The translations under genes and the position numbers were made by a program. Of a stretch of 64,000 bases of DNA, positions 1,663-55,611 are shown one piece after another. The notes under the pieces are model-generated. The model did not search any database. It had not been told where the DNA came from and saw nothing but the letters and a program-made list of their open reading frames with translations. Source of the stretch: a virus; IMG/VR virus record IMGVR_UViG_3300017774_006254, positions 64,001 to 128,000 of that record. The stretch is one strand, 5' to 3'. Each line of letters starts with the position of its first letter. The first letter of the stretch is position 1.

Positions 1663-2787
1663 ATGAGCAACGAGTCCGCACCACGCGTCCCCAACCGCAA
1701 GCCCGATCACCCCGTCGACATGAAGGAAGATCCGATCGGAACTCTTCCCGATCAGAAAGATGTCTGGAACGACAAGTCATTCGCCTCCCTCGACGATGCG
1801 ATCGATTGCGTGCTCGCTGCCCATGAGAAGGATGGGCCACGCACGGACGTGAAGATCGAAGACGTGAACAAGTGGATTGCGAGCGCGTACTGCGGAAGCT
1901 CTTGCTTCTACCGCCCAGGCGAGGATTTCCTCTTGCTGCGAGGTACCGCGTTCGCTCACTTGTGCGAGCGTGCCAAGGCGCCGCCGAGGTACTTGCAGAG
2001 TATCCCGATGATTCACTCGCTTCCCGCTCTCAACTGGGGCATTCGCAAGCAGACAGAAGGCACGGCTCTCCTCCGGCTCGTCAATGGCGATGAGGTGCGA
2101 GCCATCCTCTCTCATCGCTACGCGATGCTGGATGACGCAGTGGCGCTCCCGCAGCTTCGCGACTGCCTGAAGATGATCGACCTTCTCCCGAAGGTGTCTA
2201 CGCGCGTTGTGGCGACTGGCCTCACGACGCTCGTGCGCCTCTCACTCCCGGAAGATGAAGCGCAGGAGGTGAACGGAGAGATCGTCGACGTCTCGTTCGA
2301 TCTGACCAATGGCGAAGTGGGCAATCGCGCCGTCGCGCTTTCACCGTCGATCTACCTTCGCAGTCGAAATACATCCGCTCGCCGTAAGGGTCTCCGCCTT
2401 CGGCACCTCGGATCCCCCGACCGCATGGAGCTGGAATTCCAGGAAGCGATGCCCGCTATCCTGGAAGAGGCAGAGCTGATGCGAAGTCAGCTCGTTGATA
2501 GCGTCGACAAGATCATCAAGAACATGGCTGCCGAAGCGGAGAGCTTGCGGACGCTTGGTCTCTCGATCGCTGAGGCTCGGGATGTCGTGCGCACGATCGC
2601 CCGCGACTCCAACGTCACTCTCCCGAACGACACGAGCGAGTGGGAGGCCCCGCTGAAGGCGATGACAGGCGTCAACGCTTACGACGTCTTCACCGCCATC
2701 ACACAGCTCGGCGACGAGCGTCCGAACGAGCGCCGGTTGGATCTGGAGGAGTCGGCTGGACGCTACCTGAATCGGGTGTCGCGATGA
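1663..2787 (+). CDS. DUF932-like protein
   Basis: RAILSHRYAMLDD and LTNGEVGNRAVALSPSIY resemble the DUF932 family of phages/mobile elements. Confidence 0.55.
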   Translation: MSNESAPRVPNRKPDHPVDMKEDPIGTLPDQKDVWNDKSFASLDDAIDCVLAAHEKDGPRTDVKIEDVNKWIASAYCGSSCFYRPGEDFLLLRGTAFAHLCERAKAPPRYLQSIPMIHSLPALNWGIRKQTEGTALLRLVNGDEVRAILSHRYAMLDDAVALPQLRDCLKMIDLLPKVSTRVVATGLTTLVRLSLPEDEAQEVNGEIVDVSFDLTNGEVGNRAVALSPSIYLRSRNTSARRKGLRLRHLGSPDRMELEFQEAMPAILEEAELMRSQLVDSVDKIIKNMAAEAESLRTLGLSIAEARDVVRTIARDSNVTLPNDTSEWEAPLKAMTGVNAYDVFTAITQLGDERPNERRLDLEESAGRYLNRVSR

Positions 2788-3293
2788 CCCTCGGCGCAGC
2801 GATCAACTCGATGGTCATCACAGGCATCACGGGCACGGCGAAGGCTGTCACACCGGCCTGGAAGCTCGCGAGGATCAGCGAACGCGGCGAATGGAACCCG
2901 ACCGTCACTGACGGGAAGTTCTTTCTCGATCACACGGAACTCGTCTTCGGCCTGTACGCATTCGACAGCAATTCCCACACGTACTGCGCGGAGATCACCC
3001 CTTCGTACGAACTGCACAGAGTCGGCTCCGACTACACGCTTTCAGAAGCTGGACACGCTCTCTCTGACGAAGACCGAGAGAGGCTCTACACCATCCAGGA
3101 CGAAGCGAACGTCGACGCTGATTGCGTCATCTACATCCATGTTGGAGTCGTAGAGCGCTTGATTGGCGCTCATCCGGAGAACTTCAAAGACGTCGAAGTG
3201 GACCAGGACGCGCTCGGCGCTGATGACCCAACTCTTGCCGCCGTAGACGAGATCCGAGAGCGCGTCTGCACTGGCTCACTCAGCTTCTACTGA
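2784..3293 (+). CDS. hypothetical protein
   Basis: ATGA overlap with previous stop; 169-aa ORF. Confidence 0.55.
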   Translation: MTLGAAINSMVITGITGTAKAVTPAWKLARISERGEWNPTVTDGKFFLDHTELVFGLYAFDSNSHTYCAEITPSYELHRVGSDYTLSEAGHALSDEDRERLYTIQDEANVDADCVIYIHVGVVERLIGAHPENFKDVEVDQDALGADDPTLAAVDEIRERVCTGSLSFY

Positions 3294-3362
3294 TCCTTCA
3301 CGTTTCTGTTCCGCAACCATCAACGAAGGCGCCCCTTACGGCGCCAAGAAAGAGTCCCCTAC

Positions 3363-4502
3363 ATGTCGAACGATCACATCATCGCCGCGCAGATCTGCGT
3401 ACAGGCCCGTTTCGCTCTCTTCCTCTGGGGCGCCCCAGGCATCGGCAAGACGGCCGTACTCGAAGAGCTAGCCCCGATGCTCGACGAGAAGATCTGGACC
3501 GTCCTCCTCTCGATCCGCGAGCCCAGCGATCAGGGCGGCCTGCCGATCATCCGCCCGAACGGCGTCACCATGCACCCGCCCCTGTGGGCTCATGAGTTGA
3601 ACCAAGAGCAGAAGGGGATCGTTTTTTGGGATGAGTTCAACACAGCCCCCGCAACAACCCAGTCGTCAGCCTTGCGCATCATTCACGGCGGCTATGCCGG
3701 TGACATGAAGCTCCCTCGTGAGACAAGCCACGTCGCGGCCGGAAACCCACCCGAGGAATTTCCGGGAGGTTTCAACCTGACAGCTGCCATCGCGAACCGA
3801 TGGGTACACATCCGGTGGCCTCTTCAGCCCGCCATCTGGTGCAGTGGGATGGTCTCTGGCTGGGAGTCGCCCCCCGTCGTGCAGGTGCCCGCAGATTGGC
3901 GACGCAAGGTTCCCGTCAATCGCGGTCTCATTGCCGCCTTCATCTCTCAGCACCCCGAGCTTCTTTTGTCCTACCCAACGTCGCGAGTTGAGCAGGGCAG
4001 GGCATGGCCTAGCCCGCGCACCTGGGAGCGAGTCGCCTTCCTGATCGCGGCCTGCGATGCAGCTGGCTACCACGTGAAGTCCGAAGTCACGCGCCTGCTC
4101 GTTCTCGGATGCGTTGGAGAGGGTGCAACGATCACGTTCTACACCTGGCTCAACGAGCAGGACTTGCGTGACCCCGAGGAGTACCTCGCCGAGCCGTACA
4201 AGACGCCACTGCCTGACCGTCAGGACAAGGTGATGTCGACGCTGATGTCCGTCTGCGCCGCAGCACTCAGCAAGTCCCACGCAGACGCTGAACGCGCAGG
4301 AAGGTGGGTGACCGCATGGAAGGTCATCGGGCGCGTGATGGACTCCGCTCCTGACTTGGCAATCCCCGCAGCACGCATCCTCGCTACGGTGATCACGACA
4401 GATCCCGCGCTCAAGAGCGTCAAAACCAACTTGCCTCCAGAGCTGTCCAAGATCCTCCCGTTCCTGGAGGAAGCCAAGATCGATCACAAGAAGTCGCGAT
4501 GA
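3363..4502 (+). CDS. MoxR-type AAA+ ATPase
   Basis: Walker A GAPGIGKT, Walker B VFWDEFN, AAGNPP sensor, ANRW arginine finger; paired with VWA gene. Confidence 0.85.
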   Translation: MSNDHIIAAQICVQARFALFLWGAPGIGKTAVLEELAPMLDEKIWTVLLSIREPSDQGGLPIIRPNGVTMHPPLWAHELNQEQKGIVFWDEFNTAPATTQSSALRIIHGGYAGDMKLPRETSHVAAGNPPEEFPGGFNLTAAIANRWVHIRWPLQPAIWCSGMVSGWESPPVVQVPADWRRKVPVNRGLIAAFISQHPELLLSYPTSRVEQGRAWPSPRTWERVAFLIAACDAAGYHVKSEVTRLLVLGCVGEGATITFYTWLNEQDLRDPEEYLAEPYKTPLPDRQDKVMSTLMSVCAAALSKSHADAERAGRWVTAWKVIGRVMDSAPDLAIPAARILATVITTDPALKSVKTNLPPELSKILPFLEEAKIDHKKSR

Positions 4503-5911
4503 AGAAGAACAAAAACGTCAAAGCGGAGGAACGAGTTCGGGTAGCTCGCGCTAGAGCCTCATTTCTTCGCGGCTACTTCGCGAGCGCGCTCTACGCGCTG
4601 ATTCCAATCGAGTCGGAACTGGTCCCGACGATGGCCGTAGACGTCTACGGGCGACTCTATTACAGCCCCACGTTCGTCCTCAGCGTGACAGTCGACGAGC
4701 TGACAAGCGTGTGTCTTCATGAGGTGGGGCACAAGCTTCGTCGCCATCATGAGCGGGCAGACGCCATCGGGGTAACCGAGGCAACGCACACGATTGCGAA
4801 CTGGTGCCAAGACGCGGAGCTGAACGATGACCACGCTGACGAGGTCAAGAAGTTCAAGGACGTGGCAGCTTTGCCCGGTAGCCCGTTCTACCCTTCAACC
4901 TTCGGGTTCGAAGATGGAAAGATGTGGGAGACCTACTACTTCGAACTGCTCAAACAGGCGCTTCCGTTCAACCCGTCACCTTCGACTGACCCGTCGGCCA
5001 AAGGATCTGGTGAAGGTGACGGCGACGGGTCTGGCGACGGAGACTCCGACAGCGAAAAAGGCTCCGGATCTTCGAAGAGCAAGGGCGAAGACAAGGACGG
5101 CAAGGGCTCCTCTCCCGCCAAGTCCGGAAAGGGCGGCTTCGACGCAAGCGGAAAGCACAACTGCGGCTCCGCAGCTCATGGCGTGAAACAGCCGTGGGAA
5201 CTCGGGGCACCTAACGCCGATGGTTCCAACGAAGGTCTGGAAGATGGCGACTGGCGCAACATCGAGCGCATCGTTGCTTCTGAGATCAAAGCGGAAGCTG
5301 CCAAGGGAAGAGGCACCGTTCCCGGCTCGTGGGTTGACTGGGCGAACGAGCTTCTCAGGCCGGTCCATGTCCCATGGGATCAGGAACTGAGCGTACTAAT
5401 GAAGCACTCTGTGAATACCGTTTCTGGCAGGGTCTTTCACTCCTACGCTCGACCGTCTCGACGACAGAACCCCGAAATCGTCTTCCCTTCGATGCGGAGT
5501 CCAGTCCCGTGCATCGCGTTCATCGGGGACACGTCTGGGAGCATGAGCGGCAGAGCTTTGGGCCTTGTCCGTGGCGTAGTGCAAGACATCTGCTCGGATG
5601 TCCAAGCAGACCTTCGCTTCATCGCGACTGACATGGTGGCTCATGATGCGCAGCGAGTCACCGACGGCCACTCTCTGGAGATGAAAGGACGTGGCGGCAC
5701 AGACATGCGCGTTGGCTTTGCCGCTGCTGAAGAGATTTCGCCTTCGGTAGACATCATCGTGATCGCCACTGATTGCGATACGCCGTGGCCTGAAGTCGAG
5801 CCGATGGTGCCAGTCATCGTGTGCGCCATCGACGCTTCGGAATATGCCATCGCAGCCATCCCTAAGTGGGCAACTGTGATCATTATCGAGGAGGACGCGT
5901 GTCAGTCGTAA
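4499..5911 (+). CDS. metallopeptidase-VWA protein (DUF2201-like)
   Basis: HEVGH zincin motif, Gly/Asp/Ser-rich linker, MIDAS DTSGSM, GRGGTDM. Confidence 0.85.
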   Translation: MKKNKNVKAEERVRVARARASFLRGYFASALYALIPIESELVPTMAVDVYGRLYYSPTFVLSVTVDELTSVCLHEVGHKLRRHHERADAIGVTEATHTIANWCQDAELNDDHADEVKKFKDVAALPGSPFYPSTFGFEDGKMWETYYFELLKQALPFNPSPSTDPSAKGSGEGDGDGSGDGDSDSEKGSGSSKSKGEDKDGKGSSPAKSGKGGFDASGKHNCGSAAHGVKQPWELGAPNADGSNEGLEDGDWRNIERIVASEIKAEAAKGRGTVPGSWVDWANELLRPVHVPWDQELSVLMKHSVNTVSGRVFHSYARPSRRQNPEIVFPSMRSPVPCIAFIGDTSGSMSGRALGLVRGVVQDICSDVQADLRFIATDMVAHDAQRVTDGHSLEMKGRGGTDMRVGFAAAEEISPSVDIIVIATDCDTPWPEVEPMVPVIVCAIDASEYAIAAIPKWATVIIIEEDACQS

Positions 5912-7944: not shown

Positions 7945-8348
7945 AGGTCAAAATCACCGAGTATCGCGGGTTCCTGGCGATCGAAGCTTTGGAACCTGAG
8001 ACGCCGCATCCCGACTGGGCGCCCATTGGTCCCGGCCGCTTTGGTTGCGTGGTCAACAACACGAAGACGAATCTCGGCATCAGCAAAGAAGCGATGCTCG
8101 TGCTCTCCAAGTTGCCCAAGAGCAGAGATTCGATCGGGAACATCATGTGGTTCACCACGAAGTCGCCCTCGGGGGAAGCGGAGGGCGCGGCCTTCGGTTG
8201 GATGGGCGGCGCGCTGTGCATCATCGGGCCTGACGCAGACACAGACCGCTCCACACGGATGCACCAAGGCCAGCACATCGACATCCCCAACGACACCTCC
8301 GCAATCCTGCGTGATGCCATCGATCTGGATCTGGAGAAGAAGCCATGA
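7941..8348 (+). CDS. hypothetical protein
   Basis: ATGA overlaps at both ends. Confidence 0.6.
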   Translation: MKVKITEYRGFLAIEALEPETPHPDWAPIGPGRFGCVVNNTKTNLGISKEAMLVLSKLPKSRDSIGNIMWFTTKSPSGEAEGAAFGWMGGALCIIGPDADTDRSTRMHQGQHIDIPNDTSAILRDAIDLDLEKKP

Positions 8349-8815
8349 GCAAGATGATTACACTCCTCGACGGGTTCTCCCCGTCTGACATCCAGAAGAC
8401 CTGCATACTTCTGGCGTGGAGGGCTCGCGCAGAGCTTTCAATCGCCGAACAGAACCCCGACATGATCTTGCCGATCAGAGGGGGTCACGTGTCCAACGCG
8501 ATCTCAGCGCTGAGCGCCGCGATCGACCTCATCGGCCCGCAGAAAAAGATGGACCGTGCGCGCATGCTGCTGGACGTCGCCAAGTACGCCAGCGAAGCCA
8601 GCGAAGCTCACCTCAACGTCGCGGGCAACGCCGCGTTCCTCGTTCCCTCGATGCCCGAAATGGCGAAGAGGGCCGAGCACGCCCTTCTCATCTTCACGAA
8701 GTCGACCGAAGCCGCTCGCAAGGACGCGCATCGCGCGCTGGCCGAGCTGTGCGAGCTGTTCCCCGAGTCGGTCCCTGTCGAAGCACACCCGGAAATCGTC
8801 CAGGAGAACGTCTGA
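8345..8815 (+). CDS. hypothetical helical protein
   Basis: ATGA overlap upstream, TGATG coupling to thyX. Confidence 0.6.
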   Translation: MSKMITLLDGFSPSDIQKTCILLAWRARAELSIAEQNPDMILPIRGGHVSNAISALSAAIDLIGPQKKMDRARMLLDVAKYASEASEAHLNVAGNAAFLVPSMPEMAKRAEHALLIFTKSTEAARKDAHRALAELCELFPESVPVEAHPEIVQENV

Positions 8816-9705
8816 TGTACGCCGCGAAAGTTCTAGCCGACTCAATGGCCCCCAACGGTGTCCGCCTCGTGACCATGGAAGTCACGTTCCCCCGCTTCAT
8901 CCTGGCGGAATTCAATACGCATCGAATGTTCTCGCGGAACAGCGCGTCGAGCCGCGCTATCCCACTTGAGCGCCGCATCGCTCAAGTGCGTGCCAACCCG
9001 TTCGTTCCAGAAGCCTTCGGCGCCAACAAGAGCGGGATGCAGGCTGGCGCCGACCTCGGCGGCTGGAAGGCAGTCGTCGCACGCTGGCTCTGGCTTCTGG
9101 CCGCGAAGTTCTGCGTCTTGATCGCTTGGGGCATGAGCCACCTGGGCATTCACAAGCAGCACGCCAACCGCGTCATCGAGCTGTGGGCTTGGCATACCGT
9201 TGTCGTGTCGGCGACGGAGTGGGAGAACTTCTTCCGGCTTCGCACTCACAAGGACGCGCAGCCCGAGATGCAGATCGTGGCGAAGATGATGCGCGACGCG
9301 CACACGAGCAGCGTCTCCCTGCTACTCAAGGAAGGCGACTGGCACCTGCCCTACGTCACGAGCGACGAGAGGTCTTCCCTGTCGGAGAGCCAGGAGGTCG
9401 CGCTCAGCGTGGTGAAGTGCGCAGCTGTTTCTTTCGAACGGCAGAACACAGAGCGAACTCGCGAAGCTGTCACAGCGCGCCACGACGCGATGATCAAGTC
9501 GGCTCACTGGTCGCCGTTCGAACACGTTGCGCAAGTGGGCTCCGAAAGAGACGTGGACAAACTTGGCCTCTTCAAGATGGGCGAGGACGATTTTATCCCC
9601 GAGTTCATCGGCAACTTCCGGGCGCCGTGGGTCCAGTATCGAAAGAGGTTTCCAAACGAAGAGGTCTGGGAGCATCTGGAGTACGTGCCGGGGGCAAGTG
9701 TCTGA
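8815..9705 (+). CDS. thyX: flavin-dependent thymidylate synthase
   Basis: EFNTHRMFSRNSASSRAIP, FFRLRTHKDAQPEMQ, HWSPFEH motifs of phage ThyX. Confidence 0.9.
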   Translation: MYAAKVLADSMAPNGVRLVTMEVTFPRFILAEFNTHRMFSRNSASSRAIPLERRIAQVRANPFVPEAFGANKSGMQAGADLGGWKAVVARWLWLLAAKFCVLIAWGMSHLGIHKQHANRVIELWAWHTVVVSATEWENFFRLRTHKDAQPEMQIVAKMMRDAHTSSVSLLLKEGDWHLPYVTSDERSSLSESQEVALSVVKCAAVSFERQNTERTREAVTARHDAMIKSAHWSPFEHVAQVGSERDVDKLGLFKMGEDDFIPEFIGNFRAPWVQYRKRFPNEEVWEHLEYVPGASV

Positions 9706-10078: not shown

Positions 10079-10706
10079 AATGCCTCCCATCTACACGTTC
10101 ATCGGAACCAAGTTTCGCTTTCTCGACGCGGACCCGAAGGACGTCTCGCTCATCGACATCGCCCAGTCGCTTGCCATGACGTGCCGCTACAACGGCCACA
10201 GCCTCCGCCACACGTCAACGGCAGCTCATTCCGTCCGCGTTGCAGAGCGAGCGCTCCAGGAAACCGGGGTACCCGGTATCGCCTGGCTCGCGCTCATGCA
10301 CGACGCTCCCGAGGCGTACGTCGGAGACATTCCCACGCCACTCAAGCACGCGATGCGCATCGTGTGTGGGGAAAAGAAGAGCCCATTCGACACCATCGAA
10401 GACGCGGTCACCGCTGTCGTCGCGCAGGCGCTTGGACTCGACGAAAAGATCACCGGAAGATACTCGCTCAGGGAAGCCTGGGCCATTGTCAACGGTCTCG
10501 ACTACGAAGACTTCATCGCCGAAGCCAGTGTTGAGTGTCGTCAGCCAAAACGCCTGGTCCCTGAAAAAGCGATCTACCCCACCGGCCACACCGCCAAGCA
10601 AGCGCGAGCGCTGTGGCTACGTACGGCTGCCAAGTACGCCCCCACGACCGAGTTGCTTGTTCGCGTCCGAAGTGCCCAAGCGTACTTCCGAGGAGCGCAT
10701 CAATGA
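10062..10706 (+). CDS. HD-domain 5'-deoxynucleotidase-like hydrolase (YfbR/YfdR-like)
   Basis: DIAQSLAMTCRYNGH, STAAHS, LMHDAPEAYVGDIPTPLK. Confidence 0.85.
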   Translation: MTKIPEMPPIYTFIGTKFRFLDADPKDVSLIDIAQSLAMTCRYNGHSLRHTSTAAHSVRVAERALQETGVPGIAWLALMHDAPEAYVGDIPTPLKHAMRIVCGEKKSPFDTIEDAVTAVVAQALGLDEKITGRYSLREAWAIVNGLDYEDFIAEASVECRQPKRLVPEKAIYPTGHTAKQARALWLRTAAKYAPTTELLVRVRSAQAYFRGAHQ

Positions 10707-12487
10707 CCTTCCGTGTCTACAGGTACGGCTTGCAACCGCCCATCGAGAACGCGGAACTTGTTCGAAGCCAATTTGTCCTGGCTCACAAGTACCAGAACAA
10801 GCTCATCGAGATCGAAATTCAGCAGCGCGCAGAGGTGCGTGCTCTGTCTGCCAGGCACGGCGTCATCCCTGAGCTTGAAGCCAATGCCAAGGCTGCCGTC
10901 GACAGCGTCGACAAGCTCTTGGCAGAAATCAGGGTCCTGAAGTCGGCATCGAGAACGCGGGTCGTGCCGCAGGAACTCAAAGACCAGCTCGCCGCCGCGA
11001 AGGTAATCAAGAAGGAGACGCGAAATGCTCTCCAGGCGGCGCGCTACGAGACGCGCTCCGACACCGCGATCGCAGCCATCAGCAAGGAGATTCAGGAGAA
11101 GTACCTCGCAGCGCGCAAAGCAGCTCGTGCCGCTAACGGTCTCTACTGGGGCTCCTATCTGCTGGTCGAAGACGCAGACGACGCGCGGCGCAAGATGCCG
11201 TTCTACAAGGGCATCGAGCCGAATGACCCCCGCTTCGTGCGCTGGTCGGGTGAAGGTGCTGTCGGAGTGCAGATGCAGAAGGGGCTCCCGGTGGAAAGTA
11301 TCTCCACATCAAGGCACATTCGCATCGACCCCCGTCAGGCTCCTCCAGGAGTTGACCCTGCAAGCAAACGCTCCGCGAAGCGCTCGTACTGCACGCTCCG
11401 AATGCGCGTCGAAACGAATGATGACGCCACCAAGACACCGGTGTGGGCAGCTTGGCCTATGGTGTTCCACCGGCCCCTGCCAGAAGGCGGCGTGATCAAG
11501 CGAGCAGCCGTGCACATGAGGAAGATCGGCCCGCGAGAAGAGTGGTACGTGCTGTTCTCGGTCGATTTCAGCGGGGCTCCCGCGACTCCAGCTACAACAG
11601 AGCGAGTAGCCGTTGACATCGGATGGCGAGTGACTGAGGACGAAGGCATCTGCGTCGCCACTTGCGTCTCAGACAGCGGAGAGATCACGCGACTCGTCTT
11701 GGACAAGAAACTGCTGTCTCAGGCGAAAAAAGCGGAAGAGCTTCAGTCCATCCGAAAGAGGAACTTCAACGAAGCCATCGTAGCGCTCGTGAGCCAAGTT
11801 CACCTGGCAACCAATCCACCGGACGGGAGCGCGCCCACGATGCTGCTGCCAGAGTGGTTCCCTACGAACCTGATGCAGTGGAAGTCGGAGCAACGCTTTG
11901 CGGGCCTGGTGCACCAATGGGCGACCAATCGTTTTGAAGGCGACGAAGAGATCTTCACCGCCGCAGAAGCATGGCGCATCCACGACCGACACCTGTGGGA
12001 CTGGGAATGCAACCAGAGGTCAAAGGCTCTCCGTCACCGACGAGAGGTGTATCGAATCTTCGCGGCTCGACTTTCAAACAAGTACGCGCAGATCGTCCTC
12101 GAAGACTTCGACCTCCGGAAGGTGGCTCAAGTCCCAAGCGTTGAGAATCAAGTCGGCGACAACGAGCAGGCTCGGGCGAACCGACACTCGGTCAGCGTGA
12201 GCGAGCTGCGGCTCTGCCTGGTCAACAAGTTTGTAGACCGTGTATCCATCGTGCCCGCCGAGTTCACAACCAAGAGGTGTGCTCACTGTGGCCATCTGAA
12301 CACCTGGGACCAGGCGAAGTACGTCAGCCACACGTGCGCCAGCTGCGGTACCACTTGGAACCAAGACGAGAATGCGGCGCGCAACATGCTCGCTTACGAG
12401 AGCCCGCCTGTTGAAGCCAAAGCCCCATCCAAGGGTCGATGGATCAAAGCTAAGGAGGCGAAGAGGGAGCGAGAGGCGGCCGAGTAA
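10703..12487 (+). CDS. cas12m: Cas12m-like (type V-M/V-U1) RNA-guided effector, TnpB/Cas12 RuvC family, 594 aa
   Basis: N-terminal VYRYGL, long coiled-coil REC insertion, GLYWGSY, GAVGVQMQ, RuvC-I VAVDIGWR (D305), QWKSEQRF, RuvC-II VLEDF (E467), CxxC..CxxC zinc finger, RuvC-III QDENAARN (D555); AGGAG RBS and ATGA overlap. Confidence 0.8.
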   Translation: MTFRVYRYGLQPPIENAELVRSQFVLAHKYQNKLIEIEIQQRAEVRALSARHGVIPELEANAKAAVDSVDKLLAEIRVLKSASRTRVVPQELKDQLAAAKVIKKETRNALQAARYETRSDTAIAAISKEIQEKYLAARKAARAANGLYWGSYLLVEDADDARRKMPFYKGIEPNDPRFVRWSGEGAVGVQMQKGLPVESISTSRHIRIDPRQAPPGVDPASKRSAKRSYCTLRMRVETNDDATKTPVWAAWPMVFHRPLPEGGVIKRAAVHMRKIGPREEWYVLFSVDFSGAPATPATTERVAVDIGWRVTEDEGICVATCVSDSGEITRLVLDKKLLSQAKKAEELQSIRKRNFNEAIVALVSQVHLATNPPDGSAPTMLLPEWFPTNLMQWKSEQRFAGLVHQWATNRFEGDEEIFTAAEAWRIHDRHLWDWECNQRSKALRHRREVYRIFAARLSNKYAQIVLEDFDLRKVAQVPSVENQVGDNEQARANRHSVSVSELRLCLVNKFVDRVSIVPAEFTTKRCAHCGHLNTWDQAKYVSHTCASCGTTWNQDENAARNMLAYESPPVEAKAPSKGRWIKAKEAKREREAAE

Positions 12488-12663
12488 TGGGCGCACGTGC
12501 ACGAGCATGGGGGACGTCTCCTGCCTGGTGGTAGTGCGGCAAGTGCAATCGCGAGCGCGATCACAAGAACTTCGCCAAAGCAGGACAGCCAGTTCCCACC
12601 GGCCGTATCAAAGGAAAAGTCACGAGTCCGCACGTGCAGTACAGTCGTGACCATCCGACGTGA
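12487..12663 (+). pseudogene. interrupted paralogue of the Zn-ribbon gene at 61908-62171
   Basis: reads SPAWW*CGKCNR...AGQPVPTGRIKGK versus SPPCWKCGKCNR...HGKPTPTGRIEKK; in-frame TAG at 12532, early TGA at 12661. Confidence 0.6.
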
Positions 12664-12775
12664 TCGCAGCACTTACACACTTCTGCGCGCACCTTTCATT
12701 CGTTCGGATGTTCCCCGACGAAGCAGTCAAGTCAGGTCTGTTTTCCGAAATGCAACTAGATCGCTGGAGAAAACG

Positions 12776-13021
12776 ATGAACACAACAAGACCATACGTGG
12801 TGAAGTCCGGAGACACACTGTCTCGAATTGCCACGGACCATGGCTTGTCTTGGCGTGCTCTCTACGACTCACAAGAGAACGCCGACTTTCGAGCGAAACG
12901 TCCGGACCCTCAGAAAATCTTCGTTGGCGACGTCATCAACATTCCAGAGAAGAATGTAGCTCTCCGCAGGCTCGGGACGGTTGCCGAGCTGGACCCGTTG
13001 TGGTCGCCGATCAAGGTCTAA
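12776..13021 (+). CDS. LysM-domain protein (81 aa)
   Basis: YVVKSGDTLSRIA...NADFRAKRPDPQKIFVGDVINIP; GGAG RBS. Confidence 0.85.
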   Translation: MNTTRPYVVKSGDTLSRIATDHGLSWRALYDSQENADFRAKRPDPQKIFVGDVINIPEKNVALRRLGTVAELDPLWSPIKV

Positions 13022-13035
13022 CCGCAGTACACGAA

Positions 13036-13310
13036 CTCGACGCGTCGAGGCATTGGTTGGTGGACAAGTGGCGCTCGCGTCCGAGGCGAGACAGATCCAA
13101 ACCGCTTGGAGTATCCAAGACCCGAGGACAAGCTTTGAAGGCCGCTCGGCGCCCAGCCGAGACCGTAACGGAGTTTCGGCGACAAAGACGAGACGAGATC
13201 ACCGTCCGCAAAAGCAGCTCGACGCTCCAAGTCGAGACCTGGATGCTCGCTGTGCAAGCGCAATGGCATCTCGGCGCCCAGCCGAGACGAAAGGATCGCA
13301 CACGAATGCG
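13036..13310 (+). CRISPR. degenerate structure-conserved CRISPR-like mini-array (6-7 hairpin+AC units)
   Basis: hairpins ending (G/A)AGAC at 13092, 13121, 13163, 13194, 13238, 13288; CTCGGCGCCCAGCCGAGAC identical at 13145-13163 and 13270-13288; intergenic, about 550 bp downstream of the cas12m-like gene. Confidence 0.65.
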
Positions 13311-16537: not shown

Positions 16538-17383
16538 ATGAGCCCAGTCTTCTTGATCGACATCTCCTCGTACCTGCATCGCGCAATGCACGTGATTCAC
16601 GGAAAGCTTGCCTCTGAAGCCGATCCGTCAGACATCTCGTTCACCGTTCACGCAGCGAACATGCTCGCCAACACCATGTTTCGACTTCACATCGAAAGAA
16701 TGGCCGTGGTGTTCGACTCGACCGAGCCATCAGCTCGGTGCCAAGTCTACCCGCAGTACAAAGCCGACAGGAAGCCTCACACTCCTGTGTTCGCGGCCCA
16801 GATGCCTCGGTTCATGGCAGCCCTGGCTGACGTCGGAGTAAGCGTCTTCGAAGAACCTACCTTCGAAGCCGACGATATCATCGCGACTCTGGTAGGAGAT
16901 GAAAGAGTTCCGTACTCGATCGTGTCACACGACAAAGACCTGCTTGCTCTTGTCGACGATGCGTCAGAGGTGGCCGTCTACAACCCAACATCTGACAAGT
17001 GGCACCGCATGGATGACATCTTCTCCAAACTGGGAGTGTTTCCATGGCAGTTGCATGACTACATGGGACTAGTCGGAGACACGTCAGATGGAATCCCAGG
17101 CGTTCCTGGGATTGGAGCCAAGACCGCTTCAGCTCTCGTGGTGAAGTACGAAACGCTAGAACGTATCTACAGCGCGGAATGTCGCGAGCTTGTAGAAGAT
17201 GATCTGTCCAAGAAGCAGTTCTCTTCGCTTATTGAGAGCGAGGAAGTGGCTTTCTTGTCCAGGAGTCTAGCCAAGCCAATCATCTGCCCCGAGTTGATTA
17301 TGGTTGGGCATGGGCCCCTCTCTGCGCCGAGTCCCGACAGGATACGAACGGCCGTACAAGACTACGAGAGGAGGAATCGCTGA
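16538..17383 (+). CDS. 5'-3' exonuclease / flap endonuclease (Pol I N-terminal-like)
   Basis: LIDISSYLHRA, YKADR, FEADDIIATL, DKDLL, GDTSDGIPGVPGIGAKTA (H3TH). Confidence 0.92.
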   Translation: MSPVFLIDISSYLHRAMHVIHGKLASEADPSDISFTVHAANMLANTMFRLHIERMAVVFDSTEPSARCQVYPQYKADRKPHTPVFAAQMPRFMAALADVGVSVFEEPTFEADDIIATLVGDERVPYSIVSHDKDLLALVDDASEVAVYNPTSDKWHRMDDIFSKLGVFPWQLHDYMGLVGDTSDGIPGVPGIGAKTASALVVKYETLERIYSAECRELVEDDLSKKQFSSLIESEEVAFLSRSLAKPIICPELIMVGHGPLSAPSPDRIRTAVQDYERRNR

Positions 17384-20300
17384 TGCCTTTGGTGCGGACG
17401 ACCCACAACTTCGAACTTCCGATGACGCCTCGGAGCCCAGACGTTCGTACCTGGACGCCTCAGATGGGCACGCAAGACCTCGTGTACTCGCTTGCTGTTG
17501 GTGCTTGTGCTCCGACAGCCGAGACACAACTTCAGCGGCGCGCTGTCGAGGCCGTGAGCGTTCCATTGGCCAAGTCAGGAGGCGGCTCTGTCGTCACGAT
17601 GAGACCATACCAGAACGAGGCCATCGAAGCCGTTTCAGCGGCCTGGAAGAGTGGTTCGAAGTCGCCATTGATTGTCTTGCCGACGGCTTGCCACCGTGCC
17701 GGACAAGGCGTCCTCATGATGGATGGAACCGTTAGAAACGTAGAAGACGTGCAAGTGGGAGATGTCCTGCTCGGGCCAGACTCCAGGCCTCGAAATGTCC
17801 TCAAGACGCACCGCGGGTTCGGTCAGATGTTTGAAGTCATCCCTGTAAAAGGAAAGCCCTTTGTCGTGAACGGCGAACACGTGCTCACGCTGTACCGAAC
17901 CCCCCAGAAGCCCAACGCTAAGTACCCAAGTCAAAGATCGGCCATCGTTGACGTGACGGTGAATGATGTACTGACCAAGTCAAAGACATGGCGTCACATT
18001 CACAAACTGATCCGAGCGAGCGATGTAGAGTTTTCCGTCAGAGAGGCCCCGGTCATTCCTCCGTACTTCCTCGGCCTTTACATCGCAGACGGCTCCATGG
18101 CACAGCCCAATCAAGTTGCAGTGTCCAAGCCGGACCCGGAGGTAAGAGCTGCCTGCATGGAGCTTGCGGAAAGCTGGGGACTCAACATGCGAACGGACGT
18201 CGGTGGGAGTGGTTGCCCTTCGCATCACCTCTCAGGACTCACGTCTCCAGGAAAGACTCGCGGAGACAACCATATCCTGACGGAACTTCGCAAGCTTGGC
18301 CTCATGAACATTCCCTCCGAGGAACGCTTCATACCAGACAGTTACAAGTTCGGGTCGATTGCGGTGAGAAGAGAGCTTCTGTCCGGCTTCTTAGACGGAG
18401 ACGGACATCTCCATCGAACTGACTACGACGTCATTACGAAATCGAAGCGACTGTCCGATGACATCGTCTTCGTAGCTCGGAGCCTGGGGCTTGCTTCGTA
18501 TTCCGCTCCTTGCGTGAAGGGGTGCCAGAACGGGTTCATCGGGAATTACTTTCGCGTGACCGTATCCGGGGAAACCTCAAAACTGAAACTGAGGATACCG
18601 CGCAAGCAAGCGCCTCTCAGAGCCCAGAAGAAGAATCCTCTCGTTGCTGGATTCAGCGTGAGAAGACTTGAAGAGGAGCCGTTCTTCGGCTTCACACTTG
18701 ACTCAGATCACCGATACCTGCTTGACGACTTCACGATCACGCACAATTCGGGAAAGACGATCATCTCCGCCGAAATCATGGCTCGCACGTACGCGGGCTC
18801 TGGAGAGAAGAGCCTGTTTATTGCGCATCGTGAGGAACTGCTCACTCAAACGGTCGACAAGGTAAGGCTAGTGAGTCCCAACACTCGCGTTGGGTTGGTG
18901 CAGGGGAAGATTGCAGAGTTCGGCCGCGATGTGACCGTCGCCTCGATTCAAACGGTCGGCCACAGTAGCAAGAAGAAGCTGCGTGAACTCATCGACGGCG
19001 GACCGTACAGAACCATGATCATCGATGAGTGTCATCACGCTACGGGCAAACAGTATCGCGATGTCATCTCCGCGTTGATGGAAGCGAACCCCTCGATGCT
19101 GATCATGGGAATGACAGCAACACCCGGCCGGTCCGATGGCCTAGCTCTCGATGCCGTGTTCGACTCGGTGGCATTCGAGAAGGACATCTTCTCGATGATC
19201 CGCGAGGGATGGCTCGTTCCTCCCGTTGGCTTCGCGCAGAAGATCGATGTCGACCTCGACAAGGTTGCAACAGGTAACGGTGACTACGTATTGAGTCAGC
19301 TGTCGAAATTGATGAACACGCCCAAGGTCAACCGCGCAGTTGTCGAAGCGTGGCAGACGCATGGGCTCGACCGGAAATTCATCGCCTTTGCTTGCGACGT
19401 CGCTCACGCAAAAGCCCTAGCGCAAGAGTTCAACGACAGTGGATACCCCGCAGCGGCCGTCGACGGGAAGATGAAGAAGACGGAACGCAAGAGCATACTC
19501 ACTGCATTCCGCGAAGGCGCATTGAAAATCCTCGTGAACTGCAACATCTTGATCGAGGGGTACGACGATCCAAGCGCCGAAGGAGTCCTCTTCGCGCGCC
19601 CGACACAGAGCCAGGGCCTGCACATCCAGTCGCTCGGAAGAGGACTTCGCCTGTTCCCTGGGAAGACAGAGTGCCTGGTGATCGACTGCGTTGGAAACAG
19701 CGCGAAGCACCGCCCAGTGCAGCTCGCTTCCCTCGTCGGCTTTGATCCGCAAAGGAAGTACAAGGGCTTCGCCGGGTTCGGAAACGAGGAAGAGGAAGAA
19801 ACTGAGAAGCCAGCCGAAGTAGGCGTCGACGATGCTCGACTTGGTCAAGCGTCAGAACTTGGATTCGGATTCGCTCCGCTGAAAAGCACGTACCAGTGGA
19901 GAGAAACTTCTTTGGGGTGGATCATCCAGATACCGAAGATCGGCTACTACCTAGTCGCATGGAGCGACAAGACCAAGGTGATGGCCACGATTCGCTTCTA
20001 TGACCAAAGAAAAGGGCGCAAAACAGACAAGCCTCGCGAGGTGACCCGAATGCCGATCGAGTTCGACATGGCCTATGGGCTTGTTGAAGGAGAACTTGAC
20101 CGAATGTTCCGCGCCAAAGACTTGCGACGCGAGGAGAAGAAGGACGAGACAGGCGCAGACCTCGTCTCGTTCGTCCCGCTCGATGATGGTCTGGATGAAG
20201 ACCTGTCCGTCAGAGAAGAGCAGATGCTCAAGGACGCCGAGTGGCGAAACAAGCCCAAAACAGAGAAGCAGCGAGAGTGCCTCGAATCGCTGGGCGTGAA

Positions 20301-20505
20301 GATGAAGACGATGCCCGAGCTTGCTGGAGAAGCCAGCGACCTAATCACCATTATGCGCGTTGAGAAAGAGCTGAAGATGCGCGTGCCCGCGACGCTGAAG
20401 CAGCTGAACTTCCTTCGCTTCCACGGTATCCCGTTCTCCGAAGACATCACCAAGGGCCAGGCCGCCAAACACATCTGGCTTCATCGAAAGGCGACTGAGG
20501 TATGA
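17383..20505 (+). CDS. SF2 DEAD/DEAH-box helicase precursor containing an intein
   Basis: Q motif MRPYQ, split Walker A LPTA|SGKT, IIDECHH, GMTATP, EGYDDP, QSLGRGLR. Confidence 0.92.
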   Translation: MPLVRTTHNFELPMTPRSPDVRTWTPQMGTQDLVYSLAVGACAPTAETQLQRRAVEAVSVPLAKSGGGSVVTMRPYQNEAIEAVSAAWKSGSKSPLIVLPTACHRAGQGVLMMDGTVRNVEDVQVGDVLLGPDSRPRNVLKTHRGFGQMFEVIPVKGKPFVVNGEHVLTLYRTPQKPNAKYPSQRSAIVDVTVNDVLTKSKTWRHIHKLIRASDVEFSVREAPVIPPYFLGLYIADGSMAQPNQVAVSKPDPEVRAACMELAESWGLNMRTDVGGSGCPSHHLSGLTSPGKTRGDNHILTELRKLGLMNIPSEERFIPDSYKFGSIAVRRELLSGFLDGDGHLHRTDYDVITKSKRLSDDIVFVARSLGLASYSAPCVKGCQNGFIGNYFRVTVSGETSKLKLRIPRKQAPLRAQKKNPLVAGFSVRRLEEEPFFGFTLDSDHRYLLDDFTITHNSGKTIISAEIMARTYAGSGEKSLFIAHREELLTQTVDKVRLVSPNTRVGLVQGKIAEFGRDVTVASIQTVGHSSKKKLRELIDGGPYRTMIIDECHHATGKQYRDVISALMEANPSMLIMGMTATPGRSDGLALDAVFDSVAFEKDIFSMIREGWLVPPVGFAQKIDVDLDKVATGNGDYVLSQLSKLMNTPKVNRAVVEAWQTHGLDRKFIAFACDVAHAKALAQEFNDSGYPAAAVDGKMKKTERKSILTAFREGALKILVNCNILIEGYDDPSAEGVLFARPTQSQGLHIQSLGRGLRLFPGKTECLVIDCVGNSAKHRPVQLASLVGFDPQRKYKGFAGFGNEEEEETEKPAEVGVDDARLGQASELGFGFAPLKSTYQWRETSLGWIIQIPKIGYYLVAWSDKTKVMATIRFYDQRKGRKTDKPREVTRMPIEFDMAYGLVEGELDRMFRAKDLRREEKKDETGADLVSFVPLDDGLDEDLSVREEQMLKDAEWRNKPKTEKQRECLESLGVKMKTMPELAGEASDLITIMRVEKELKMRVPATLKQLNFLRFHGIPFSEDITKGQAAKHIWLHRKATEV
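17689..18747 (+). mobile_element. intein with LAGLIDADG homing endonuclease (353 aa)
   Basis: starts at Cys (CHRAGQ), block B NGEHVL, FLGLYIADG and LLSGFLDGDG, ends THN followed by Ser, inserted in Walker A. Confidence 0.93.
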
Positions 20506-43042: not shown

Positions 43043-43116
43043 GCTCCCGTAGCTCAGTTGGATAGAGCAGTCGCTTCCTAAGCGAAAGGTCCCAGGTTCA
43101 ACTCCTGGTGGGAGCG
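43043..43116 (+). tRNA. tRNA-Arg (anticodon CCT)
   Basis: acceptor GCTCCCG/TGGGAGC, D arm AGCTCAGTTGGATAGAGC, loop TTCCTAA, T arm CCAGG-TTCAACT-CCTGG; no encoded CCA. Confidence 0.93.
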
Positions 43117-55245: not shown

Positions 55246-55611
55246 GGGCGTGAAAGGTGTCGACGGAGTGACTGGAGACCGTGTTGCGTGCAGGGGTTGA
55301 TCGGCTGGCCCCTATATCAAGCCGATCATCGTAGATGCGAACGAAAGCAACTACGCTCGCGCCGCGCAAGCAGCCTGAGCCGTTTGGTGAAGTAGGCGGC
55401 GGACTTCATCGGGCGTCATTTAGCCGAGGCAAGCTTGTTTTGTATCCTCAGGATTCAAGCCCAAGGCTGTTCATCTGAAGATTGGTGGAGGAGTGACCGT
55501 CACTCCCGACCGGGCCGCACCAGCTGAGAGCGGTACTCTCGAACAGGTGATACGCACGTAGACGCACGGAATTTGGCATTTCGGACCCGGGTTCGACTCC
55601 CGGCACGTCCA
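55246..55611 (+). ncRNA. ssrA: tmRNA; tag (A)ANESNYARAAQAA
   Basis: acceptor GGGCGUG/CACGUCC with G3-U wobble and A discriminator; 5' GAAAGGUGUCGAC; 3' GACCCGGGUUCGACUCCCGG T arm; tag ORF 55337-55378 after UAGAU. Confidence 0.93.

Follow-up and report, generated by a model that had tools for sequence, protein, structure and literature searches.

The window analysed here, a 64,000-nucleotide (nt) stretch of viral DNA (bases 64,001-128,000 of the 161,502-bp IMG/VR record IMGVR_UViG_3300017774_006254, labelled G000), encodes a type V-M effector, Cas12m, whose gene is followed on the same strand by a tract of small hairpins that we call array A; a second tract of such units lies outside the window, about 67 kb away from cas12m. 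We conclude, with a probability of roughly 0.55, that effector and tracts form a functional type V-M system without adaptation, in which short, fixed guides from the two arrays would direct the effector to bind DNA at targets external to the virus. An earlier note, made from the letters of the window alone, had pointed to this locus as a phage-encoded Cas12m-like effector with a cryptic guide array and no adaptation module, and had put it forward as a candidate for an undescribed system.

The effector

The open reading frame (ORF) for 594 aa that the earlier note had singled out was found as described, with all of the motifs quoted for it present. When its product was compared with the structures in the PDB, the best match was the 'CRISPR-associated DNA-binding protein Cas12m' 23vw_A (E 1.8e-80, residues 6-566), and other Cas12m structures matched as well (Cas12m2 8hio, 6.5e-32; 8pm4, 2.3e-28; UnCas12m4a, 6e-22), while TnpB and Cas12f structures aligned only at the C-terminal zinc-finger region (E 3e-4 to 0.7; TnpB 8bf8, E 0.42). 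PADLOC assigned the protein to Cas12u1 at 2.1e-96, compared with 4e-09 or weaker for Cas12u2-u4; V-U1 is the former name of type V-M. The NCBIfam models for TnpB scored far below their cut-offs (guided_TnpB 39.7 bits against 100, IS607_TnpB 26.5 against 350, IS200_TnpB 23.7 against 425), and the Pfam model Cas12f1-like_TNB matched at 2.2e-09. These sub-cut-off scores, a 3' flank that is a decayed protein-coding ORF and an operon coupling that is present in three viruses rule out an IS200/IS605- or IS607-type TnpB, in agreement with the original view that the protein is not an IS-associated TnpB. The RuvC triad is formed by D305, E467 and D555 and the C4 zinc finger (TNB domain), which splits the RuvC domain near the C-terminus, by C526, C529, C545 and C548; E467, C529 and C545 do not vary among 40 homologues, and conservation of D305, C526, C548 and D555 is nearly complete (at least 90%). 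On the strength of these sequence comparisons, those with solved structures included, the effector is a genuine Cas12m, with family-level membership of type V-M.

MmCas12m, to which the protein had been likened, is not the best comparator, for the virus-encoded effector keeps a D-E-D triad like 23vw and the D-E-D orthologues. Cas12m orthologues with D-E-D, H-D-D or N-D-D triads bound double-stranded DNA, and none of them cleaved it (Bigelyte et al., 2024, PMC11013384); possible cleavage by D-E-D clades was left open by Omura et al. (PMC10442227). Since the D-E-D orthologues studied by Bigelyte et al. only bind, the intact triad is no evidence of cutting, and because the D-E-D orthologues assayed to date do not cut, we consider it probable that this Cas12m would bind DNA without cutting it.

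A single copy of cas12m is present in the complete genome, and neither Cas1, Cas2 nor Cas4 was found anywhere in its 161.5 kb, which extends to the whole genome what had been stated for the window. Two sister viruses, L003 (a 157.6-kb contig) and L004 (139.4 kb), were recovered from Logan assemblies (samples SRR19430219 and SRR15633504), and their Cas12m proteins are 89 and 86% identical, respectively, to the one studied here. None of the three viruses has a broken cas12m ORF; the nucleotide identity of the gene to its sisters is 82% overall, with 92-94% at codon positions one and two and 62% at third codon positions.

Hairpin units and the Cas12m scaffold

We aligned 34 distinct canonical repeats taken from IMG/VR loci with Cas12m homologues and from 42 bacterial or metagenome-assembled genome (MAG) loci. 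They share a common plan consisting of GT..CAA, a 3-nt arm, a 5-bp stem, a loop that begins with the complement of the arm and a terminal AC. Judged from the covariation in this alignment, their fold is an H-type pseudoknot: 93.7% of the cells are paired, 60 double-sided changes occur, none of 500 shuffles was as good, and slid-partner controls were clean. A covariance model, R1, was trained only on canonical V-M repeats from other loci. Run over the whole genome, it placed 20 of its 23 matches in the two tracts, on one strand each and on the correct one, with low scores for the units of this virus (10-25 bits). The strict motif, a CTC..stem..GAG-AC hairpin, occurs 24 times genome-wide where about seven occurrences are expected, and because 20 of the 24 cluster at two sites, the hairpin tracts are far beyond chance.

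Array A (13060-13288, plus strand) comprises four clear and two weak units, each with a CTCxxx-loop-xxxGAG stem followed by AC. The strict hairpins end at 13092, 13163, 13238 and 13288, and the weaker ones at 13121 and 13194 (Table 1). No regular array was found by Tandem Repeats Finder, a direct-repeat search or an exact-k-mer array screen. A hairpin array about 550 bp downstream of the effector gene had been claimed before; the tract stands where it was placed, but a LysM gene and a decayed ORF occupy the gap, and the tract is the smaller of the two in the genome.

For a covariation test, the units were chosen by their stem alone, and the pseudoknot was not used in choosing them. In the virus and its sisters the pseudoknot arms pair as GGC/GCC in 21 units, AGC/GCT in 11, AGT/ACT in 10 and GGT/ACC in five, a pairing that none of 1000 shuffles equalled. 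Within array A, the arms of unit 3 (AGC/GCT) co-vary relative to those of units 2 and 4, and in L003 the stem of the last unit carries a compensatory change from G-C to A-T. On the evidence of this covariation, the units retain the Cas12m CRISPR RNA (crRNA) scaffold with its 3-bp pseudoknot arm, 5-6-bp stem and AC tail before the guide. Their geometry agrees with the crRNA scaffolds of Cas12m2, in which a 6-bp stem is followed by A-2 and C-1 and by a 17-bp heteroduplex (PMC10442227), and of GoCas12m, with a handle of ~30 nt and an 18-bp duplex (PMC11013384). The suggestion that cryptic guide-type repeats are present was sound in that R1 finds the hairpins and both stem and pseudoknot co-vary; read in this way, the hairpins of array A are worn Cas12m CRISPR repeats. 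We find it scarcely credible that they are independent of Cas12m, as generic intergenic repeats or as terminators for transcription of the opposite strand. On that strand nine units do resemble weak intrinsic terminators (3.0 +/- 1.8 expected), but a model trained on Cas12m repeats of unrelated loci picks the units specifically and on one strand, the pseudoknot co-varies, and homologous tracts follow cas12m in L003, L004, L005, L141 and L142.

Compared with either sister, array A shows 91% identity, with 93-94% in the handle columns and 89-90% in the inter-unit (spacer) columns. Set against the 62% at third codon positions of cas12m, this identity indicates that array A is under selection, and by the same comparison constraint acts on the inter-unit segments as well as on the scaffolds.

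In the second tract, the strict motif scan detected 16 more units, all on the minus strand, between genome positions 143,769 and 146,041. With filters off, the top 24 matches of R1 in the 7-kb locus L006 likewise fall on the minus strand (2183-4556, genome 143,682-146,055); the tract thus holds at least 24 units by R1 and about 30 in a relaxed listing. Both tracts are co-oriented with their flanking genes. The second is broken by a few small, variably present ORFs, and in its densest stretch (genome 143.7-144.6 kb) ~18 units follow each other at a 38-63-nt period with no ORF between them. Among the three sister viruses this tract is hypervariable, whole units and blocks having been inserted or deleted, and some of its guides are common to all three viruses, others private. 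Such differences in unit content through block insertions and deletions would also be seen if the tracts were decaying relics of formerly canonical CRISPR arrays that have no function now. The degenerate repeats with their weak R1 matches, two barely recognisable units in array A and the lack of an adaptation module that could renew the arrays point in the same direction. Against such decay, compensatory changes keep stem and pseudoknot in dozens of units, array A is conserved far above the synonymous sites of cas12m, and cas12m itself is intact in the three viruses, with its first and second codon positions conserved to the degree given above; we regard a loss of function as quite unlikely.

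Scaffold copies clearly adopt more than one format across the Cas12m viruses. A profile scan of IMG/VR recovered at least 79 viral loci with Cas12m homologues, and homologues are also present in MAGs of many phyla. At 53 of the 79 viral loci, a regular array with a 72-75-nt period lies directly downstream on the same strand. The nearer relatives form a gradient: in L142 and L020 an array that is canonical at the start grows compact and degenerate towards its distal end, L141 carries a pair of compact tracts, and in L007 the repeats are 28 nt long with a 61-nt period; L005 has 18-nt hairpins at a 41-48-nt period. In the more distant IMG/VR virus L036, whose Cas12m is 30% identical, tandem ~32-nt units without unique spacers stand directly upstream of cas12m (4740-4970); they are made up of a conserved ACATTCCCGTCA linker and a GAGAC hairpin and recur at four more intergenic sites (8271-8383, 8893-8982, 10604-10945 and 11648-11735). 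The 166-kb relative L143 carries a solo repeat (4885-4920, 22 bits) ~80 nt upstream of the cas12m start, plus a canonical downstream array; in the virus studied here, no R1 unit is present upstream of cas12m. As a separate observation, a canonical spacer of L019 (at 7006) matches the cas12m gene of L141 (5889-5906) at 18 of 18 nt. In the 1.4-Mb local database that was searched, the match has an E of 4e-4, and over all spacers about 0.2 such matches are expected; it could reflect targeting between viruses or chance.

Proposed guides, target searches and other explanations

The period from unit to unit is mostly 38-50 nt, a packing of ~44 nt, as compared with 72-75 nt in canonical arrays; a period of 71-75 nt for array A was considered and dropped in view of L005 and of the second tract. 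When a handle of 26-30 nt is subtracted, guides of ~12-20 nt are left, and it is as guides that we infer the units to act. In the mechanism that we favour, the tracts would be transcribed within long viral transcripts, and Cas12m would bind each scaffold and cut upstream of it, as its relatives do. The mature RNA would then consist of the ~26-30-nt handle and a fixed, inherited ~12-20-nt guide, and the complexes would bind DNA flanked by a protospacer-adjacent motif that belongs not to the virus but to its host or to rival elements, where they would block transcription or replication. Because only the RNA fold would be selected without Cas1-Cas2, the repeat sequences would be free to diverge, and units could be gained or lost as blocks.

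Several results weigh against such guides. The chief weakness is their short length: with the full 33-36-nt repeat counted, many inter-unit gaps measure only 6-16 nt, and many guides just reach the known optimum or fall short of it, the duplex in solved complexes being 17-18 bp. Some guides are near-duplicates of each other (AAGTGGAACGG...). Furthermore, none of the searches revealed a target or protospacer, and the aim at host genes or competing elements that the earlier note proposed is no more than a candidate. Within the virus's own genome, the guides matched at chance level, both with 10-13-nt seeds and over 17 nt with up to three mismatches; a blastn comparison of the 2.4-kb tract with 50,697 phage records gave only matches with E >= 0.7; and two guides conserved in all three viruses had no exact match in IMG/VR. 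The conserved 20-mer ATGGAACCTCCGGGATGAAA had four matches in Joint Genome Institute (JGI) metagenomes, one of them in an unrelated contig and three in NRAMP-type transporter genes (L137, L138 and L139), at the same codons (WNLRDEK) and in GC-rich and AT-rich contigs alike. NRAMP was rejected as a target, given that the number of matches is about that expected by chance for a 20-mer, that the sites are homologous and that their 5' flanks differ (GGA, TCA); we judge these matches to be chance plus homology, a curious coincidence. Finally, the spacer-less units of L036 imply that in some viruses the scaffolds do something other than carry guides.

Self-targeting or autoregulation by a mini-array of the crlRNA, CreR or tracr-L type was likewise rejected, the guide matches to the own genome being at chance level. 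In the opposite direction, the spacers of 456 canonical arrays from relatives gave no match to this genome.

The position of the L036 units directly upstream of its cas12m would also fit a role of the units as cis-acting RNA operators or processing sites that Cas12m binds, and perhaps cuts, in polycistronic mRNAs, thereby tuning transcript stability or translation for small genes nearby; the inter-unit sequence would then not be a guide. Both tracts do lie inside co-directional transcription units and are mixed with small, variably present genes, several units directly adjoin an ATG (as GAGAC-ATG at three places), and the last unit of array A closely precedes the next gene (Table 1). However, the ~18 units that follow each other without an intervening ORF in the second tract are difficult to reconcile with this role, the conservation between the units of array A is above the need of a mere spacer, and this virus has no unit in front of its own cas12m. 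We hold regulation in cis to be unlikely.

Some viruses are known to carry mimics of repeats by which the Cas proteins of the host are inhibited or redirected (PMC10651486; bioRxiv 10.1101/2024.10.29.618823). With this precedent, the units might be seen as RNA anti-CRISPR-like decoys of the Racr or viral crlRNA type that soak up or misdirect a V-M effector encoded by the host, and a sponge would be well served by numerous scaffolds with little sequence between them. This seems to us very unlikely, as the virus has its own cognate Cas12m and array A is placed as the canonical arrays are in most relatives, and the decoys described to date are mostly solitary units.

Fixed short guides used by the virus's own Cas12m hence remain the explanation that we prefer. 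In a more far-reaching form, which we put forward tentatively and rate well below an even chance, the system would be a hard-wired multi-target programme in which ~30 inherited guides of ~14-18 nt are directed against many sites on the host chromosome or on rival elements. Arrays in which only the fold is kept would then be the general end state after loss of Cas1-Cas2 and would recur in many virus-borne V-M loci (L005, L020, L141, L142).

Locus, genome and relation to known systems

Table 1. Features of the cas12m locus (positions in the window)
Feature	Position	Strand	Remarks
cas12m, type V-M effector, 594 aa	10703..12487	+	matches to solved structures, PADLOC and motif evidence
Decayed small zinc-ribbon ORF	12488..12775	+	intact CxxC...CxxC ORFs at the same place in L003 (52 aa) and L004 (90 aa)
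LysM-domain gene, 81 aa	12776..13021	+	Pfam LysM 1e-09; syntenic in L003 and L004
Palindromic hairpin CTCGAC-GC-GTCGAG, no AC tail, doubtful unit	13036..13051	+	absent from L004; missed by R1
Array A unit 1, worn repeat ACAAG..GGC..CTCGC-loop-GCGAG-AC	13060..13092	+	strict hairpin; R1 6.1 bits (weak); kept in L003 and L004
Short hairpin CTTGGA-GTA-TCCAAG-AC without 5' flank, possible remnant unit	13105..13121	+	missing from L003, as is the spacer before it
Array A unit 2, GGC..CTCGGC-GCC..GCCGAG-AC	13132..13163	+	R1 16.7 bits; pseudoknot arms GGC/GCC
Degenerate unit	13175..13194	+	better hairpin in L004
Array A unit 3, GCAAAAGCAG-CTCGAC-GCT..GTCGAG-AC	13204..13238	+	local E 0.00067 and 21.8 bits, the best R1 match in the window
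Array A unit 4 (last), GCAATGGCAT-CTCGGC-GCC..GCCGAG-AC	13256..13288	+	R1 18.8 bits; 51 nt before the next ATG (13340)

The start codon of cas12m overlaps the stop codon of the upstream gene, which encodes a YfbR-like HD 5'-deoxynucleotidase, by 4 nt (ATGA), and a DUF6283 gene and thyX (ThyX) lie further upstream. The translational coupling of the effector gene into a nucleotide-metabolism operon, as proposed originally, is borne out by this arrangement, and the gene order around cas12m is kept in L003 and L004. Of the two genes between cas12m and array A (Table 1), the window copy of the zinc-ribbon ORF has a TAG codon where the sisters have AAG, and its middle part has diverged. R1 found no match in this interval (12488-12775), and an omegaRNA or trans-activating crRNA (tracrRNA) encoded there was rejected, as the sisters encode an intact zinc-ribbon ORF at this place and the window copy is a broken one.

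The source genome has direct terminal repeats and is rated complete. No Pfam model for the terminase (Terminase_6N), the HK97 capsid or the portal matched anywhere in it, PHROG matches are very few among its large ORFs, and the virion module is unrecognised; that it is viral is concluded from how IMG/VR classifies it, from its terminal repeats and from the sister contigs, which measure 139-158 kb. Close DNA relatives were found neither among the phage records nor by a single-protein scan of IMG/VR. Elsewhere, the window encodes a 1040-aa ResIII/DEAD helicase (17383-20505) that is split by an intein, in which Hint and LAGLIDADG homing-endonuclease domains are present, a tRNA-Arg(CCT) (43043-43116) and a tmRNA (55246-55611; tag ANESNYARAAQAA, Rfam 112 bits).

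The system resembles the characterised type V-M systems (MmCas12m2 8hhl/8hio, GoCas12m 8pm4, the D-E-D orthologues of Bigelyte et al., 23vw) in the full-length homology of the effector, in its domain order with a REC helical 'Roof' insertion, RuvC and a C4 zinc finger, in the design of the crRNA scaffold (pseudoknot, 5-6-bp stem, AC before the guide) and in the lack of an adaptation module; as in type V-M loci, no tracrRNA-like element is evident in this virus either. It differs from them in that the canonical ~36-nt identical repeats with ~35-38-nt unique spacers are replaced by sequence-variable units at a 38-50-nt period, in that there are two array loci 67 kb apart, in the two unrelated genes that separate cas12m from array A, and in being carried by a virus. 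MvCas12m of the myxophage MV-1, presented as the first virus-borne Cas12m in a preprint of September 2026 (bioRxiv 10.64898/2026.09.14.751636), is likewise a virus-encoded protein of ~600 aa with an adjacent array and no cas1/2/4, for which no protospacers were found, and its D-E-D triad (D305/E463/D555) corresponds to D305/E467/D555 here. By its published description, on which this comparison is based, the MV-1 array has one consensus repeat and eight spacers and is recognised as canonical by CRISPRCasTyper. The 197-kb virus Rctr197k (GenBank KX853510) carries a 34%-identical gene annotated as 'similar to transposase', with an annotated CRISPR directly after it on the same strand. Its 36-nt repeat ends in CTCAGA-loop-TCTGAG-AC; unlike the tracts described here, the array is regular, with ~20 identical repeats at a 71-76-nt period. 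The crRNA-like mini-arrays and solitary units of Shmakov et al. (bioRxiv 10.1101/2023.03.03.530964) and the RNA anti-CRISPRs (PMC10651486) resemble our tracts in that the repeats, though degenerate, still have the fold that the effector binds, in that guides are short or partial and in that CRISPR finders often miss them. However, they consist of one to three units and usually target a cas promoter or mimic host repeats, whereas at least 28 units are present here, none of which matches the own genome, and the virus that carries them also encodes the cognate effector.

The claim of an undescribed system does not stand as it was made, since virus-borne Cas12m is known from the MV-1 preprint, from KX853510 and from at least 79 IMG/VR contigs. 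The effector is a new member of a known family, and a virus-borne Cas12m with an array and without adaptation genes has already been reported. In the literature searched, no description was found of the present array format, in which dozens of sequence-variable but fold-keeping units are packed at ~44 nt in two loci. Our verdict is that the array format is new and the kind of system known.

As a compact effector that binds DNA, Cas12m is now being engineered for the editing of bases and of the epigenome. Natural arrays that spend ~44 nt per guide, and in which the repeat sequence varies while pseudoknot and stem are kept, define a minimal scaffold, and compact arrays of which only the fold is conserved would offer a natural design for non-recombining multiplex guide arrays. 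The tracts also illustrate the fate of a CRISPR array on a virus after the loss of adaptation. Because CRISPR finders that rely on repeat identity miss such arrays, virus-borne guide repertoires are probably under-counted. Should host genes be what the ~30 guides hit, the virus would be using CRISPR interference for host takeover.

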